Of a stretch of DNA of 64,000 bases, positions 1 through 20,227 are shown one piece after another (positions within the stretch are counted from its first letter, which is position 1; each line of letters begins with the position of its first letter). The notes beneath the pieces are model-generated. The model saw only the letters and a list, made by a program, of their open reading frames with translations, was not told where the DNA came from and made no database searches. A program made the position numbers and the translations under genes. Location of the stretch: assembly GCF_030013205.1 (NCBI RefSeq), contig NZ_CP122648.1; one strand, written 5' to 3'. This DNA comes from Escherichia coli (GTDB lineage Bacteria; Pseudomonadota; Gammaproteobacteria; Enterobacterales; Enterobacteriaceae).

Positions 1-1375
1 CCGCTCAGAACTACTCGATTCACGTTTTGGCGCAAAGGCCATTTCTACTATCGCGGAGTCAAAACGATTTCCGCTGCACGAAATGCGCGATGATGTCGCA
101 TTCCAGATTATCAATGATGAATTATATCTTGATGGCAACGCTCGTCAGAACCTGGCCACTTTCTGCCAGACCTGGGACGACGAAAACGTCCATAAATTGA
201 TGGATTTGTCGATCAATAAAAACTGGATCGACAAAGAAGAATATCCGCAATCTGCAGCCATCGACCTGCGTTGCGTAAACATGGTTGCCGATCTGTGGCA
301 TGCGCCTGCGCCGAAAAATGGTCAGGCCGTTGGCACCAACACCATTGGTTCTTCCGAGGCCTGTATGCTCGGCGGGATGGCGATGAAATGGCGTTGGCGC
401 AAGCGTATGGAAGCCGCAGGTAAGCCGACCAACAAACCAAACCTGGTGTGCGGTCCGGTACAAATCTGCTGGCATAAATTCGCCCGCTACTGGGATGTGG
501 AGCTGCGTGAGATCCCTATGCGCCCCGGTCAGTTGTTTATGGACCCGAAACGCATGATTGAAGCCTGCGACGAAAATACCATCGGCGTGGTGCCGACTTT
601 CGGCGTGACCTACACCGGTAACTATGAGTTCCCGCAACCGCTGCACGATGCGCTGGATAAACTCCAGGCCGACACCGGTATCGACATCGACATGCACATC
701 GACGCTGCCAGCGGTGGCTTCCTGGCACCGTTCGTTGCCCCGGATATCGTCTGGGACTTCCGCCTGCCGCGTGTGAAATCGATCAGTGCTTCAGGCCATA
801 AATTCGGTCTGGCTCCGCTGGGCTGCGGCTGGGTTATCTGGCGTGATGAAGAAGCGCTGCCGCAGGAACTGGTGTTCAACGTTGACTACCTCGGTGGTCA
901 GATTGGGACTTTCGCCATCAACTTCTCCCGCCCGGCGGGTCAGGTAATTGCACAGTACTATGAATTCCTGCGCCTTGGTCGTGAAGGCTATACCAAAGTA
1001 CAGAACGCTTCCTACCAGGTTGCCGCTTATCTGGCGGATGAAATCGCCAAACTGGGGCCGTATGAGTTCATCTGTACCGGTCGCCCGGACGAAGGCATCC
1101 CGGCGGTTTGCTTCAAACTGAAAGATGGTGAAGATCCGGGATACACCCTCTACGACCTCTCTGAACGTCTGCGTCTGCGCGGCTGGCAGGTTCCGGCCTT
1201 CACTCTCGGCGGTGAAGCCACCGACATCGTGGTGATGCGCATTATGTGTCGTCGCGGCTTCGAAATGGACTTTGCTGAACTGTTGCTGGAAGACTACAAA
1301 GCCTCCCTGAAATATCTCAGCGACCACCCGAAACTGCAGGGTATTGCCCAGCAGAACAGCTTTAAACATACCTGA
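1..1375 (+). CDS. gadA: glutamate decarboxylase alpha, 5'-truncated by the window edge (reading frame begins at nt 2)
   Basis: ORF translation matches Gad from about residue 10 to the C-terminus (…[18 protein letters not shown]); followed by gadX, which identifies the gadA rather than the gadB copy. Confidence 0.9.
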
Positions 1376-1392
1376 TAACATAACGTTGTAAA

Positions 1393-1440
1393 AACCGAAT
1401 GCCCAACTTTTAAAAAACAGCTGGGCATTCGGTTGCTTAT
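1393..1440 (+). terminator. rho-independent terminator after gadA
   Basis: Inverted repeat aaccgaatgccca…tgggcattcggtt followed by a T-rich run. Confidence 0.5.
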
Positions 1441-1742
1441 TAATCGCAATAATATATTGGCTGTCTATTCATCGTGTTGATAAGATATATGTTATATGAA
1501 TGTTTATTAAATGTGCGATTATATTTAATGTAACGGAAATGGATTATTTGCTTACTATTAATTTCCCTGCGTTCTTAAACACGTTTTTGTATTATAAATC
1601 CAGTCATCCTGCCCGTAGAACATCACACATTATCATCCTGTTCTCCCGCTTCGTTTAAATTTATTTATCAATCAATTTGACTTAAGAGAGCGGCGTGCTA
1701 CATTAATAAACAGTAATATGTTTATGTAATATTAAGTCAACT

Positions 1743-2567
1743 ATGCAATCATTACATGGGAATTGTCTAATTGCGTACGCAAGACATAAATATATTCTCA
1801 CCATGGTTAATGGTGAATATCGCTATTTTAATGGCGGTGATCTGGTTTTTGCGGATGCAAGCCAAATTCAAGTGGATAAGTGTGTTGAGAATTTCGTATT
1901 AGTTTCAAGAGACACGCTTTCATTATTTCTCCCGATGCTCAAGGAGGAGGCATTAAAACTTCATGCACATAAAAAAGTTCCTTCATTACTCGTTCATCAC
2001 TGTACCAGAGATATTCCTGTTTTTCAGGAGGTTGCGCAACTATCGCAGAATAAGAATCTTCGCTATGCAGAAATGCTACGTAAAAGGGCATTAATCTTTG
2101 CGTTGTTATCTGTTTTTCTTGAGGATACGCAGTTTATACCGTTACTTCTGAACGTGTTGCAACCGAATATGCGAACACGAGTTTGTACGGTCATCAATAA
2201 TAATATCGCCCATGAGTGGACATTAGCCCGAATCGCTAGCGAATTGTTGATGAGTCCAAGCCTGTTAAAGAAAAAATTGCGCGAAGAAGGTACGTCATAT
2301 TCACAGTTGCTTACTGAGTGTAGGATGCAGCGTGCTTTACAACTTATTGTTATATATGGGGTTTCAATTAAGAGAGTTGCAGTGTCCTGTGGATATCACA
2401 GCGTGTCGTATTTCATTTACGTCTTTCGAAATTATTATGGGATGACGCCCACAGAGTATCAGGAGCGATCGGCGCAGGGATTGTCGAACCGTGACTCGGC
2501 GGCAAGTATTGTTGCGCAAGGGAATTTTTACGGCACTGACTGTTCTGCGGAAGGAATAAGATTATAG
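1743..2567 (+). CDS. gadX: AraC-family acid-resistance regulator GadX
   Basis: 274 aa ORF with a C-terminal AraC HTH; position between gadA and gadW. Confidence 0.9.
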   Translation: MQSLHGNCLIAYARHKYILTMVNGEYRYFNGGDLVFADASQIQVDKCVENFVLVSRDTLSLFLPMLKEEALKLHAHKKVPSLLVHHCTRDIPVFQEVAQLSQNKNLRYAEMLRKRALIFALLSVFLEDTQFIPLLLNVLQPNMRTRVCTVINNNIAHEWTLARIASELLMSPSLLKKKLREEGTSYSQLLTECRMQRALQLIVIYGVSIKRVAVSCGYHSVSYFIYVFRNYYGMTPTEYQERSAQGLSNRDSAASIVAQGNFYGTDCSAEGIRL

Positions 2568-2583
2568 AGTTTTACTCTGACAT

Positions 2584-2689
2584 AAAAAAAACCCGGCATA
2601 GGGGACCGGGAAGAGGATAGTCTGCCGTCTCCAGACTAATAAACCGTTATAACACTCCCTGTTGGCACGGGAAACTTTGTGCTCTCAGT
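2584..2689 (-). ncRNA. gadY: GadY small RNA, antisense to the gadX 3' end
   Basis: Minus strand reads actgagagcacaaagtttcccgtgccaacagggagtg…ccggtcccctatgccgggtttttttt, which matches the GadY sequence as I recall it and ends in a hairpin plus U-run. Confidence 0.75.
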
Positions 2690-2935
2690 AAGTTAAATAT
2701 AACTTTTACTGGAAATAAGATCAGCCATTTTTTTATAAACATAAGCTATACGCTGTGCGAAAATATATTCGTGTTGCATTTACTTATTATCAATTAACTG
2801 TTATGCAAAACTACTTTGTGGATAAATTTTGGTCCTACCAAATCTGGCAGTTTTTGCGCTAAGAAACAGTCTGGCATCATTTCATTAGTATACTGAAATT
2901 GAAATAATCGCAGTAATGAAATATAAGGGATAGTC

Positions 2936-3664
2936 ATGACTCATGTCTGCTCGGTGATCCTCGTTCGTCGTTCATTCGATATTTATCATGAACAGCAAAA
3001 AATATCGTTGCACAACGAGAGTATCCTGTTACTGGATAAAAATTTGGCAGACGATTTTGCGTTTTGTTCACCGGATACGCGACGACTGGATATCGATGAG
3101 CTGACAGTTTGCCATTACTTACAAAATATTCGTCAGATACCACGCAATTTAGGGTTACATAGCAAAGACCGTCTGTTAATTAACCAGTCACCCCCCATGC
3201 CGCTGGTGACGGCGATTTTTGATAGTTTCAATGACTCCGGGGTAAATTCACCGATACTGAGCAAAATGCTCTATCTTTCCTGTTTATCGATGTTTTCTCA
3301 TAAGAAAGAACTGATCCCCTTACTTTTCAATAGTATCAGTACTGTTTCAGGAAAAGTTGAACGCCTTATTAGCTTTGATATCGCCAAACGTTGGTATCTG
3401 CGCGATATTGCGGAAAGAATGTATACCAGCGAGAGTCTAATCAAAAAAAAGTTGCAGGATGAAAATACCTGTTTCAGTAAAATATTACTCGCCTCCAGGA
3501 TGTCGATGGCCAGACGATTACTCGAGTTACGTCAAATTCCTCTGCATACTATTGCGGAAAAATGTGGCTATAGCAGTACATCGTACTTTATAAACACATT
3601 TCGACAATATTATGGTGTAACGCCACATCAGTTTGCGCAACATTCGCCAGGTACCTTTTCCTGA
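2936..3664 (+). CDS. gadW: AraC-family regulator GadW
   Basis: 242 aa ORF with a C-terminal AraC HTH; conserved position. Confidence 0.9.
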   Translation: MTHVCSVILVRRSFDIYHEQQKISLHNESILLLDKNLADDFAFCSPDTRRLDIDELTVCHYLQNIRQIPRNLGLHSKDRLLINQSPPMPLVTAIFDSFNDSGVNSPILSKMLYLSCLSMFSHKKELIPLLFNSISTVSGKVERLISFDIAKRWYLRDIAERMYTSESLIKKKLQDENTCFSKILLASRMSMARRLLELRQIPLHTIAEKCGYSSTSYFINTFRQYYGVTPHQFAQHSPGTFS

Positions 3665-4026
3665 CATATTTTGCATTTGAATATTGGTCAGGATCTCACA
3701 CCTGCTTCATGTGAAACTCTTCCCTGATGATTTCTGCCGGGCTACCGGCTAGTTCTCTTTCGCAGTTTGCCAGGCGGTATAGGTATTTTCAGGAGGAAAA
3801 GACTCGGCATGTTTGGGATTATTAAGCTGACAATTCATACGATTACGGGAATGTGGGTCAGTATTGTGTTGTTTAAATTGATGACGAATGGCTGGAGTGG
3901 TTTCTACTTTCAGTGCTGTGTACTAAGCCTGGTATTCCTGACGGTTAGCTGGTTGTTGAGTGGTGAATGGTTAGCGGGAAAGAGTAAGGCTGAACCCTCA
4001 CGTTCAACCTTACTCTCATTTACACG

Positions 4027-7000
4027 TTACGCTTTTTTAAAGCGGGCAAAGAGATGTTCCACTACAACGAAAAAGACCGGAACGAAGTAAATTGCCAGCA
4101 CTGTTGCGGCAAACATCCCGCCCATCACGCCGGTACCTACCGCGTTTTGCGCGCCAGAACCGGCACCATGACTGATAACCAGCGGCAGCACGCCGAGAAT
4201 AAAGGCCAGAGAGGTCATCAGGATTGGGCGTAAACGCATCCGCGCCGCTTCGATGATTGCCTCTATCGGCGTTTTCCCTTCTTTCTGCATCATCTCAACG
4301 GCAAATTCGACAATCAGGATGGCGTTCTTGGCGGAAAGCCCGATGGTGGTCAGCAAACCAACCTGGAAGTAGACGTCATTACTTAAGCCGCGTAGATCGG
4401 TGGCCAGTAATGCGCCAACGACGCCTAACGGTACAACCAACATCACCGAGAACGGAATTGACCAGCTCTCATAAAGTGCGGCGAGGGCGAGGAACACCAC
4501 GACCAGTGAAATGGCATACAGCGCGGGAGCCTGATTTGAGGATAACGCTTCCTGATACGACAGTCCGGTCCATGAGTAGCCGACGCCTGCCGGAAGTTTA
4601 GCGACCAGGTCTGCCATAAATTTCATGGCGTCACCGGTACTTTTCCCGGCCGCCGCTTCACCTAAAATCTCCATTGACGGGATGCCGTTGTAGCGTTCCA
4701 GTCGCGGTGAACCATAGGTCCATTCGGTAGACGAATAGGCAGAAAGCGGTGCCATCGTGCCAGAGGCGTTGCGTACATACCATTGGTTGATGTTATCCGG
4801 CAACATACGGAACGGCGTGCCTGCCTGGACATACACTTTTTTCACCCGCCCCTGGTTGAGGAAGTCGTTCACGTAGCTGCTGCCGAAGGCGGTGGAAATT
4901 GTCTGGTTGATATCAGACAGCGCCACGCCCATCGCTTCAGCTTTCGCGGCGTTGACGTTCACTTTGAACATCGGCGTATCTTCCAGTCCGTTCGGACGTA
5001 CCCCGGTGACTTGATTCGGTGATTGCGCTGCCAGTGATAATAGCTCGTTTCGCGCCTGGGTCAGTTTTTCGTGCCCCAGGTTGCCGTTGTCCAGCAGTTC
5101 CATATCAAAACCTGACGCGGTACCCAGTTCAGCCACCGCGGGTAAGTTGAACGGGAAGACGACGGCTTTATTGATACTGCTTAACGCAATCATTGCCCGC
5201 TGAATGATCGCGGTAACCGAGTTTTCCTCACCGACACGTTCAGACCACGGCTTGAGACTGATAAACGCCAGACCGTTGTTTTGCCCCTGGCCGCTGAAGC
5301 CAAAGCCGCCAACGGTAAACACCGACTGAACATTATCTTTCTCTTTAGTCAGATAATAATCCGTCACCTGTTGCAGCACTTTCGTGGTGTTAACCATGGT
5401 GGCACCGGAAGGTAACTGCGCGGTGGTCATAAATACCCCCTGATCCTCTTCTGGTAAGAAAGAGGTCGGCGTACGCAGGAACAGCACCGCCATCCCAGCG
5501 CAAATCAGCAGGTAGACCACCATGTAGCGACCGGTACAACGCAACAGCGAGCGGGTGCTGTCGGTATAGTGCTGAGTTGATTTTTCAAACAGCGTGTTGA
5601 AGCGTGCGAACAGGGCGTTAGGTTTATGACCGCCTTCCGGCGCGGCTTTCAGAATGGTGGCGCACAGGGCAGGGGTCAGGCTCATTGCCACAAATACTGA
5701 AAGCAGCATGGAGGAGATCAGCGTGATGGAGAACTGGCGGTAGATCTCCCCGGTTGCACCGCTCATAAAGGCCATCGGCATAAACACTGCGGAAAGAACA
5801 ACGGCAATCCCGACCAGCGCACGTTGGATCTGCCCCATCGATTTATGCGTCGCTTCCTTCGGCGGTAGCTTATCTTCCGCAATGACACGCTCGACGTTCT
5901 CCACCACCACGATGGCGTCATCCACCAGTAACCCTATCGCCAGCACCATCCCGAACATAGTTAACGTGTTGATGGTGAAACCGACCGCCGACAAGATCGC
6001 AAACGTCCCGAGAATAACCACCGGTACGGCAATCGTCGGGATGATTGTGGCACGGAAATTCTGCAAAAACAGATACATGACCAGGAAGACGAGGATGATA
6101 GCCTCAACCAGTGTTTTGAAAACTTCCTGAATAGAAATTTCGATAAACGGCGTGGTGTCGTAAGGATAAACCGTCTTCAGACTTGCCGGGAAATAGGCTG
6201 ATAAGCGGTTCAGTTCCTCTTTGACTGCCCGCGAGGTATCCAGGGCGTTTGCTCCGGCAGCCAGTTTGATGGCGATCCCGGCAGCAGGTTTGCCGTTATA
6301 GCGCGCCACGGTGGAATAATCTTCCGCCCCAAGTTCGACGCGGGCGACATCACGCAGCAGCACTTGCGAACCATCTTGCTGAACTTTCAACAGGATTTTG
6401 CCAAATTCTTCCGGCGTTTGCAGACGCGTCTGCACAATGATCGAGGCGTTTAGTTGCTGGTCTGCCGCCTGTGGCATGCCACCCAGTTGACCACCGGAAA
6501 TCTGGTTGTTTTGCACCTTAATCTGGGAAATAACATCGGAAGGTACCAGATTGTATTTATTGAGTTTTTGCGGGTCCAGCCAGATACGCATGGCGTACTC
6601 GGAACCAAAGAGCTGTACGCTACCAACGCCCGCGGTACGGCTTAGCGGGTCTTTGATATTAGACGCTACATAGTCCGCGATATCGTACTGGTTGAGGCTG
6701 CCGTTATCAGAAATAAACGCCGCTACCATCAGAATATTACTGCTCGACTTATCAACGCTAATCCCCTGCTGCTGCACCGCTTCAGGTAATGAAGGCATAG
6801 CGAGTTGCAGTTTATTTTGCACCTGAACCTGTGCGATATCAGGAGATGTCCCAGTCTCGAAGGTCAGAGTGATAGAGGCATTACCCGCCGCATCACTGGT
6901 TGAAGACATGTACATCAGGCCATCAAGCCCATTCATATTTTGCTCAATCACCTGAGTGACCGAGTCTTCTACCGTTTGCGCATCGGCACCTGGATAGGTA

Positions 7001-8322: not shown

Positions 8323-8660
8323 TTTAGTCCCTGAAAATTCTTGAGAAATAACGGTTCTTTAAATTGCGCGCGAGGAGAGATATGAGGGATTTACAGACCA
8401 GCGGCATAGTGGGGTTGTCAGCCAGTAAGGTGGGATACAGGCATAGTGATCGACATGGTGAGGTCAACGACAAAAAAAATGTTGCCGTTCTGCCAACAGT
8501 TCCTGCCAGCATTCGGGCAACGAAGGGTTCTACTGGTGGATACACATACCAGGGGAATAAAGTCGTTTTAACCTCTCCTTTAGTAATCACCGGGGGTAAT
8601 GAAATCAGCATCTGCATCCCTCGTCATGCCAGCCATCAATTTCAGTTGCTTATGTCCTGA

Positions 8661-17955: not shown

Positions 17956-18244
17956 ACGTTTGCGCTTAACAAAACACGACCATATGGATAACAAAACCAT
18001 AGCATTTGCAAGGGATAACGCACAGCGCTCTTCACTCCTGATGGGGCATATCGTTTTGCCTGACAAAGAGGGCGTGCTTTTGCGTATTTGCCGAGATACC
18101 AGGCAATTTCATGGGATATAAACGCCTGTAAACTCACCCGGCGAATATTATCGCTCTGAATTTTAAATAAATTTATTTTTCGCCAGCCACCCCGGTATTA
18201 ACCCAGGCAGCCAGCATTTTTTATTTTCCTCATGGAGAATCGCT

Positions 18245-20227
18245 ATGTCACGTCCGCAATTTACCTCGTTGCGTTTGAGTTTGTTGGCTTTGGCTGTTTC
18301 TGCCACCTTGCCAACGTTTGCTTTTGCTACTGAAACCATGACCGTTACGGCAACGGGGAATGCCCGTAGTTCCTTCGAAGCGCCTATGATGGTCAGCGTC
18401 ATCGACACTTCCGCTCCTGAAAATCAAACGGCTACTTCAGCCACCGATCTGCTGCGTCATGTTCCTGGAATTACTCTTGATGGTACCGGACGAACCAACG
18501 GTCAGGATGTAAATATGCGTGGCTATGATCATCGCGGCGTGCTGGTTCTTGTCGATGGTGTTCGCCAGGGAACGGATACCGGACACCTGAATGGTACTTT
18601 TCTTGATCCGGCGCTGATCAAGCGTGTTGAGATTGTTCGCGGACCTTCAGCATTACTGTATGGCAGTGGCGCGCTGGGTGGAGTGATCTCCTACGATACG
18701 GTCGATGCAAAAGATTTATTGCAGGAAGGACAAAGTAGTGGTTTTCGTGTCTTTGGTACTGGCGGCACGGGGGACCATAGCCTGGGATTAGGCGCGAGCG
18801 CGTTTGGGCGAACTGAAAATCTGGATGGTATTGTGGCCTGGTCCAGTCGCGATCGGGGTGATTTACGCCAGAGCAATGGTGAAACCGCGCCGAATGACGA
18901 GTCCATTAATAACATGCTGGCGAAAGGGACCTGGCAAATTGATTCAGCCCAGTCTCTGAGCGGTTTAGTGCGTTACTACAACAACGACGCGCGTGAACCA
19001 AAAAATCCGCAGACCGTTGAAGCTTCTGATAGCAGCAACCCGATGGTTGATCGTTCTACAATTCAACGCGATGCGCAGCTTTCTTATAAACTCGCCCCGC
19101 AGGGCAACGACTGGTTAAATGCAGATGCAAAAATTTACTGGTCGGAAGTCCGTATTAATGCGCAAAACACGGGGAGTTCCGGCGAGTATCGTGAACAGAT
19201 AACAAAAGGAGCAAGGCTGGAGAACCGTTCCACTCTATTTGCCGACAGTTTCGCTTCTCACTTACTGACATATGGCGGTGAGTATTATCGTCAGGAACAA
19301 CATCCGGGCGGCGCGACGACGGGCTTCCCGCAAGCAAAAATCGATTTTAGCTCTGGCTGGCTACAGGATGAGATCACCTTACGCGATCTGCCGATTACCC
19401 TGCTTGGCGGAACCCGCTATGACAGTTATCGCGGTAGCAGCGACGGCTACAAAGATGTTGATGCTGACAAATGGTCATCTCGTGCGGGGATGACTATCAA
19501 CCCGACCAACTGGCTGATGTTATTTGGCTCATATGCCCAGGCATTCCGCGCCCCGACGATGGGCGAAATGTATAACGATTCTAAGCACTTCTCGATTGGT
19601 CGCTTCTATACCAACTATTGGGTGCCAAACCCGAACTTACGTCCGGAAACTAACGAAACTCAGGAGTACGGTTTTGGGCTGCGTTTTGATGACCTGATGT
19701 TGTCCAATGATGCCCTGGAATTTAAAGCCAGCTACTTTGATACCAAAGCGAAGGATTACATCTCCACGACCGTCGATTTCGCGGCGGCGACGACTATGTC
19801 GTATAACGTCCCGAACGCCAAAATCTGGGGCTGGGATGTGATGACGAAATATACCACTGATCTGTTTAGCCTTGATGTGGCCTATAACCGAACCCGCGGC
19901 AAAGACACCGATACCGGCGAATATATCTCCAGTATTAACCCGGATACCGTTACCAGTACCCTGAATATTCCGATCGCTCATAGTGGCTTCTCTGTTGGTT
20001 GGGTCGGTACGTTTGCCGATCGCTCAACACATATCAGCAGCAGCTACAGCAAACAACCTGGCTATGGCGTGAATGATTTCTACGTCAGTTATCAAGGACA
20101 ACAGGCGCTCAAAGGCATGACCACTACTTTGGTGTTGGGTAACGCTTTCGACAAAGAGTACTGGTCGCCACAAGGCATCCCACAGGATGGTCGTAATGGA
20201 AAAATTTTCGTGAGTTATCAATGGTAA
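18245..20227 (+). CDS. chuA: TonB-dependent outer-membrane haem/haemoglobin receptor
   Basis: 660 aa ORF with signal peptide, TonB box (ETMTVTA) and C-terminal terminal Phe/Trp beta-barrel signature (…FVSYQW). Confidence 0.92.
   Translation: MSRPQFTSLRLSLLALAVSATLPTFAFATETMTVTATGNARSSFEAPMMVSVIDTSAPENQTATSATDLLRHVPGITLDGTGRTNGQDVNMRGYDHRGVLVLVDGVRQGTDTGHLNGTFLDPALIKRVEIVRGPSALLYGSGALGGVISYDTVDAKDLLQEGQSSGFRVFGTGGTGDHSLGLGASAFGRTENLDGIVAWSSRDRGDLRQSNGETAPNDESINNMLAKGTWQIDSAQSLSGLVRYYNNDAREPKNPQTVEASDSSNPMVDRSTIQRDAQLSYKLAPQGNDWLNADAKIYWSEVRINAQNTGSSGEYREQITKGARLENRSTLFADSFASHLLTYGGEYYRQEQHPGGATTGFPQAKIDFSSGWLQDEITLRDLPITLLGGTRYDSYRGSSDGYKDVDADKWSSRAGMTINPTNWLMLFGSYAQAFRAPTMGEMYNDSKHFSIGRFYTNYWVPNPNLRPETNETQEYGFGLRFDDLMLSNDALEFKASYFDTKAKDYISTTVDFAAATTMSYNVPNAKIWGWDVMTKYTTDLFSLDVAYNRTRGKDTDTGEYISSINPDTVTSTLNIPIAHSGFSVGWVGTFADRSTHISSSYSKQPGYGVNDFYVSYQGQQALKGMTTTLVLGNAFDKEYWSPQGIPQDGRNGKIFVSYQW

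Follow-up and report, generated by a model that had tools for sequence, protein, structure and literature searches.

The gadY small RNA gene between gadX and gadW of Escherichia coli and a terminator hairpin that very probably serves GadY alone

The gadX-gadY-gadW locus

The window, that is the whole 64,000-nucleotide stretch of Escherichia coli DNA analysed here, begins inside gadA, which is followed by gadX and gadW on the plus strand and then by mdtF on the other strand. The intergenic region of gadX and gadW, 368 nt in length, holds gadY, which encodes a small RNA on the strand opposite to both of its neighbours and lies between them as it does in K-12 (Table 1). In a window-wide Rfam scan, the GadY family (RF00122) matched the minus strand over its full length at 2579-2692, with 150 bits, E=8.3e-32 and model positions 1-114 of 114 covered (the gathering score of this family is 45 bits). 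Alignment of the intergenic regions showed agreement at 106/106 bases between 2584-2689 and the curated MG1655 gene b4452, an ncRNA of 106 nt at NC_000913.3 3664864-3664969 that likewise stands 16 nt from the end of gadX. The first-pass annotation had placed GadY on the minus strand at exactly these coordinates, directly after the gadX stop, and had proposed comparison with the annotated reference gene as the check, with a mismatch as the outcome that would speak against it. Both the Rfam match and the complete identity to b4452 confirm the assignment, and GadY begins 16 nt past the end of gadX at 2567.

Compared with K-12 GadY (b4452, formerly IS183), the sequence, the strand relation, the spacing to gadX and gadW, the three-hairpin structure, the terminator and the 3' end are all alike, and there is no difference inside the gene. 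The sole base change near gadY is a T at 2579 (A in MG1655), which falls outside the gene, 5 nt beyond its 3' end. The feature is an ordinary gadY sRNA gene of the E. coli acid fitness island, with nothing that departs from the reference, and GadY itself is an already known, textbook cis-antisense sRNA. At the left edge of the window, gadA (1-1375, plus strand) is cut by the window start, and the 430 aa that the ORF tool lists from an internal ATG are an edge effect which does not indicate truncation; the reading of the gadA ORF at 83-1375 as a pseudogene was rejected, as the window begins inside the gene.

Table 1. Features of the gadX-gadY-gadW locus in window coordinates.
Feature	Position	Strand	Evidence
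gadX CDS, 274 aa, AraC-family acid-resistance activator	1743-2567	+	ORF list; RefSeq annotation of a relative 100% identical over 2400-2950
gadX stop codon TAG	2565-2567	+	stop codon checked
Spacer from gadX stop to GadY 3' end, 16 nt	2568-2583		sequence, alignment
gadY gene, GadY-105 form, annotated 106 nt	2584-2689	-	Rfam 150 bits; 106/106 identity to b4452
U8 tract of the GadY intrinsic terminator	2584-2591	-	sequence, terminator scan; Term-seq (PMC7815308), TRS (PMC10687069)
GadY terminator hairpin	2592-2610	-	terminator scan, folding; every pair unchanged across 8 Escherichia sequences
Central GadY stem-loop, 7 bp, 7-nt loop	2618-2638	-	Rfam, folding; invariant across Escherichia
GadY 5' domain, first, interrupted stem-loop	2643-2689	-	Rfam, folding
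Position equal to the main K-12 gadX-strand RNA 3' end, OD 2.0	2678	+	PMC7815308, sheet LB 2.0; transferred by sequence identity
Probable -10 hexamer TATATT of the gadY promoter	2696-2701	-	sequence and conservation
gadW CDS, 242 aa, downstream partner in the gadX-gadW transcript	2936-3664	+	ORF list, RefSeq annotation

Structure and promoter of the GadY RNA

The hexamer TATATT lies at -12 to -7 relative to the 5' end at 2689 and is invariant in all eight sequences compared, and from this position it is the probable -10 element of the gadY promoter. In K-12, GadY forms of 105, 90 and 59 nt with a common 3' end have been described, as summarised in PMC3050690 and PMC4574537. Since the 3' end is common to all forms, these published lengths would put the 5' ends of the 90- and 59-nt forms near 2673 and 2642. 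Summaries of the K-12 literature describe the RNA as RpoS-dependent, expressed in stationary phase and bound by Hfq. The folding energy of the whole RNA is no better than that of shuffled sequences on either strand (z = -0.73 for the GadY molecule and -0.94 for the opposite one), and RNAalifold draws the 5' domain otherwise than Rfam.

At the 3' end, the hairpin CCCGGU-CCCCUAU-GCCGGG is formed by pairing of 2610-2605 with 2597-2592 through five G-C pairs and one U-G pair around a 7-nt loop; the cccgg…ccggg hairpin of the first-pass annotation is therefore real and lies at 2592-2610. Together, this 6-bp G+C-rich stem and the U8 tract supply the rho-independent terminator of the GadY 3' end, which is also the usual Hfq-binding module. 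The same annotation had described A/T runs on both flanks of the hairpin, and this proved wrong. In the GadY direction, on the minus strand, the stem is followed by TTTTTTTTAT (T8, 2591-2584). On the plus strand, in the gadX direction, the left flank of the hairpin is A8 and the tail that follows the stem is AAGAGGATAG, with 1 T in 10, so that the A8/T8 run stands on one side only.

The stem is nearly palindromic, and a complementary hairpin can therefore also form in the gadX transcript, with a folding energy of -7.9 kcal/mol on the gadX strand vs -8.8 on the GadY strand. A terminator scan found the hairpin to be the best site in 1400-4100 and reported it on the minus strand only, with no plus-strand terminator-like site between gadX and gadW. 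A relaxed search of the same intergenic region for plus-strand hairpins with a T-tail gave candidates at 2752-2777 and 2820-2847, which are weak, A+T-rich (-4 to -5 kcal/mol, 5 T in 8) and unconvincing.

Conservation in Escherichia

Of the 5426 complete E. coli genomes, 5412 carry a 161-nt stretch around gadY at >=95% identity, in each case on the chromosome; 3440 of these genomes reach >=99% and the remainder 95-99%. Relatives were sought among species-representative genomes with an exact 21-mer from the central stem-loop, which identified six loci, in E. albertii, E. whittamii, two divergent E. coli lineages and two further Escherichia species. All six are full-length Rfam GadY matches (117-150 bits), and all keep the order gadX-gadY-gadW. 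In an alignment of eight Escherichia sequences, the TATATT hexamer, the central stem-loop, the terminator stem and a T8-T9 run are invariant. The spacer past the T-run diverges quickly between Escherichia species, whereas gadY itself is nearly invariant. Because the stems never vary among these eight sequences, covariation speaks neither for nor against them.

The asymmetry of the U-tract is conserved as well. On the gadX strand no T-run follows the stem in any sequence: E. albertii has AAGAAAATAG there and the others have AAGAGGATAG; the one-sided arrangement is kept in E. albertii, E. whittamii and three further Escherichia lineages, with the T8-T9 run always present on the GadY side.

Transcript 3' ends and the gadX-strand end at 2678

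Since the sequence is identical to that of K-12, published K-12 transcript maps can be transferred to the window, and scripted coordinate mapping places K-12 3664969 at window 2584 (minus strand) and 3664875 at window 2678 (plus strand). By Term-seq, Adams et al. 2021 (PMC7815308 supplementary file 1) list the 3' end of GadY at 3664969(+), with 18,565 reads in LB at OD 0.4 and 16,443 reads at OD 2.0, and the sole listed gadX-strand end between gadX and gadW is 3664875(-), with 125,068 reads in LB at OD 2.0. No gadX-strand 3' end is listed at the hairpin, in a curated list that holds strong peaks only and would leave room for a minor end. Independent TRS data put the primary GadY terminus at 3664968/9, and the portion of the TRS entries consulted holds no opposite-strand terminus at the GadY 3' end (PMC10687069). 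Mapping of transcript ends had been suggested as a check on the idea of a shared hairpin; the published K-12 ends bear it out for GadY, which ends at the hairpin (2584), and contradict it for the gadX strand, which ends at 2678. BCM data (PMC7815308 supplementary file 2) also list a Rho-dependent region at 3664987(+), which corresponds to about 2566 of the window, just past the GadY terminator on the minus strand and opposite the end of gadX. This suggests that Rho stops the little transcription that passes the terminator and runs antisense into gadX.

Literature summaries report that gadX and gadW are transcribed together, and that pairing of GadY with the intergenic part of the gadX-gadW transcript leads to cleavage inside the complementary region, after which gadX and gadW exist as separate RNAs at raised levels. 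According to the same summaries RNase III takes part, and in rnc mutants GadY-dependent cleavage goes on at shifted sites; since cleavage persists in these mutants, another nuclease is involved. A gadX-strand RNA that ends at 2678 extends 111 nt beyond the gadX stop and 68 nt beyond the hairpin; its 3' end falls within the GadY-complementary stretch, 11 nt from the GadY 5' end, and the overlap with GadY is 95 nt. A 3' end 11 nt inside the end of a duplex would fit the geometry of RNase III, and the 2678 end appears compatible with such a cut.

It is rather unlikely, though worth weighing, that the 2678 end does not come from GadY-directed cleavage at all, and instead reflects weak termination, or trimming by a 3'-to-5' exonuclease that was halted by the mRNA stem-loop 2656-2672 or by the border of the GadY duplex. 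A hairpin of modest stability (-5.4 kcal/mol) does stop only a few bases short of 2678, and AACUUU comes next, but this tail contains 3 T in 8, which is under the usual terminator criteria. For trimming, the Term-seq authors themselves say that 3' ends near sRNA pairing sites may reflect exonuclease protection as well as cleavage, and the summarised GadY-dependent cleavage at shifted sites without RNase III leaves the nuclease picture incomplete; exonuclease trimming to a protected edge is thus a fair alternative as the source of this end. Against termination and trimming alike stand the RNase III-compatible position of the end and the published work, as summarised, according to which gadX and gadW RNAs become separate through GadY-dependent processing in the complementary region.

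Direction of the terminator hairpin

Taken with the anatomy and conservation of the hairpin, the mapped ends make it very probable that the hairpin works as an intrinsic terminator in one direction only, for GadY, that gadX transcription reads through it into gadW, and that GadY is complementary to the resulting gadX-gadW transcript. Read-through is attributed to the lack of a U-tract in that direction. Three features define a shared bidirectional terminator: a G+C-rich hairpin that can form in both transcripts, a T-run past the stem on both strands, and 3' ends of both strands at the hairpin. The first is found here. The plus strand, however, carries no T-run in any of the eight sequences, and in the K-12 Term-seq data, obtained on an identical sequence, only GadY ends at the hairpin, so that two of the three defining features are lacking.

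A weaker role of the hairpin on the gadX strand can also be imagined, in which a hairpin without a U-tract could make polymerases pause or halt some of them, e.g. when they collide head-on with those on gadY, or could serve as a 3' stabilising stem for a minor monocistronic gadX mRNA. This we regard as quite improbable. If it were true, GadY transcription itself, besides the GadY RNA, would tune the gadX:gadW ratio.

That a bidirectional intrinsic terminator ends both GadY and the convergent gadX transcripts, and in this way sets up GadY-directed processing, had been the proposal of the first-pass annotation, and is very unlikely. The almost palindromic stem has similar energies on the two strands and stands only 24 nt past the gadX stop codon, bidirectional terminators are known for other sRNA/mRNA pairs such as sraG and rpsO, and early work described gadX and GadY as overlapping by at least 30 nt at their 3' ends. 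However, the T-run that such a terminator would need after the stem on the plus strand is absent here and in 7/7 related sequences, the terminator scan finds a minus-strand site only, the K-12 gadX-strand end lies well beyond the hairpin, and gadX and gadW are reported as a single transcript. No such claim came up in a literature search that combined GadY with 'bidirectional terminator'; the two papers that use the term apply it to a cloning vector and to sraG/rpsO, and not to gadY/gadX.

Processing of the gadX-gadW transcript

With the hairpin taken as a terminator for GadY alone, the events at the locus can be put into an order. A promoter immediately to the right of 2689 would drive GadY on the minus strand, and the hairpin at 2610-2592 with the U8 at 2591-2584 would end it. 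Since gadY occupies the region between gadX and gadW and is read from the other strand, 106 nt of the gadX-gadW transcript are perfectly complementary to GadY, and this transcript, having passed through the hairpin, would then pair with GadY to form a long RNA duplex. Cutting of the duplex by RNase III and at least one other nuclease would give separate, more abundant gadX and gadW mRNAs. In this account the identity, position, terminator anatomy, one-sided U-tract and conservation come from the present analysis, and the transcript ends, co-transcription and nucleases are carried over from the K-12 literature by 100% sequence identity.

The anatomy fits the processing account in two respects, in that a full duplex requires the mRNA to read through the hairpin and in that the mapped mRNA end falls inside the duplex. 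Processing directed by GadY, which depends in part on RNase III, has its basis in the perfect antisense overlap of 106 nt and not in a common terminator. The suggestion that the arrangement of GadY and gadX underlies processing of the gadX-gadW transcript thus holds for the antisense arrangement, which is in the literature, and fails for the role given to a shared terminator.

Other antisense systems offer partial parallels. SraG is likewise an sRNA antisense between two co-oriented genes, rpsO and pnp, with RNase III taking part in processing. However, the terminator in that system is explicitly bidirectional and ends rpsO transcripts, whereas at gadY the mRNA strand has no U-tract after the hairpin and the mapped 3' end of the mRNA is elsewhere. 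Lambda OOP RNA with the cII-O mRNA, and type I antitoxin RNAs (e.g. OrzO/zorO), share with GadY a cis-encoded antisense RNA, a long perfect duplex and a cut by RNase III, and there too rnc mutants still cleave residually, at shifted sites. These pairings lower the expression of their targets, whereas GadY-directed cleavage raises both the gadX and the gadW halves.

Annotation and neighbouring features

GadY and its role in gadX-gadW mRNA processing have been described since 2004-2011, and the present result matters little beyond correct annotation. In that respect, gadY is unannotated in every RefSeq/PGAP record examined, despite its presence in nearly all complete E. coli genomes. The hairpin should not be recorded as a gadX terminator, because gadX and gadW would then wrongly appear as separate transcription units.

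Further RNA features were matched elsewhere in the window. A full-length Rfam match to the ES205 sRNA (105 bits) lies at 8472-8543 on the minus strand, between the gadE stop (~8661) and the mdtE start (~8274), and two of the six further Escherichia loci likewise have an ES205 match. We take this site to be the position of the gadE 3'UTR-derived sRNA GadF in K-12. The PGAP annotation of the closest RefSeq genome has a 92-aa 'hypothetical protein' at ~8382-8660 on the plus strand, opposite the gadE-mdtE intergenic region and over the ES205/GadF position; this is probably a spurious gene.

The chu haem-uptake genes stand between yhiD and dctR, which indicates that the window comes from a non-K-12 E. 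coli with an enlarged acid fitness island; in this the host differs from K-12. At 18216-18247 on the plus strand there is a match to the shuA/chuA 5' UTR FourU RNA thermometer (60 bits against a gathering score of 58), which ends at about the chuA start (~18245). Finally, tandem matches to the AgrB antisense RNA model at 28477-28560 and 28711-28794, both on the minus strand (106 and 98 bits), are probably the agrA/agrB pair of the dinQ region.
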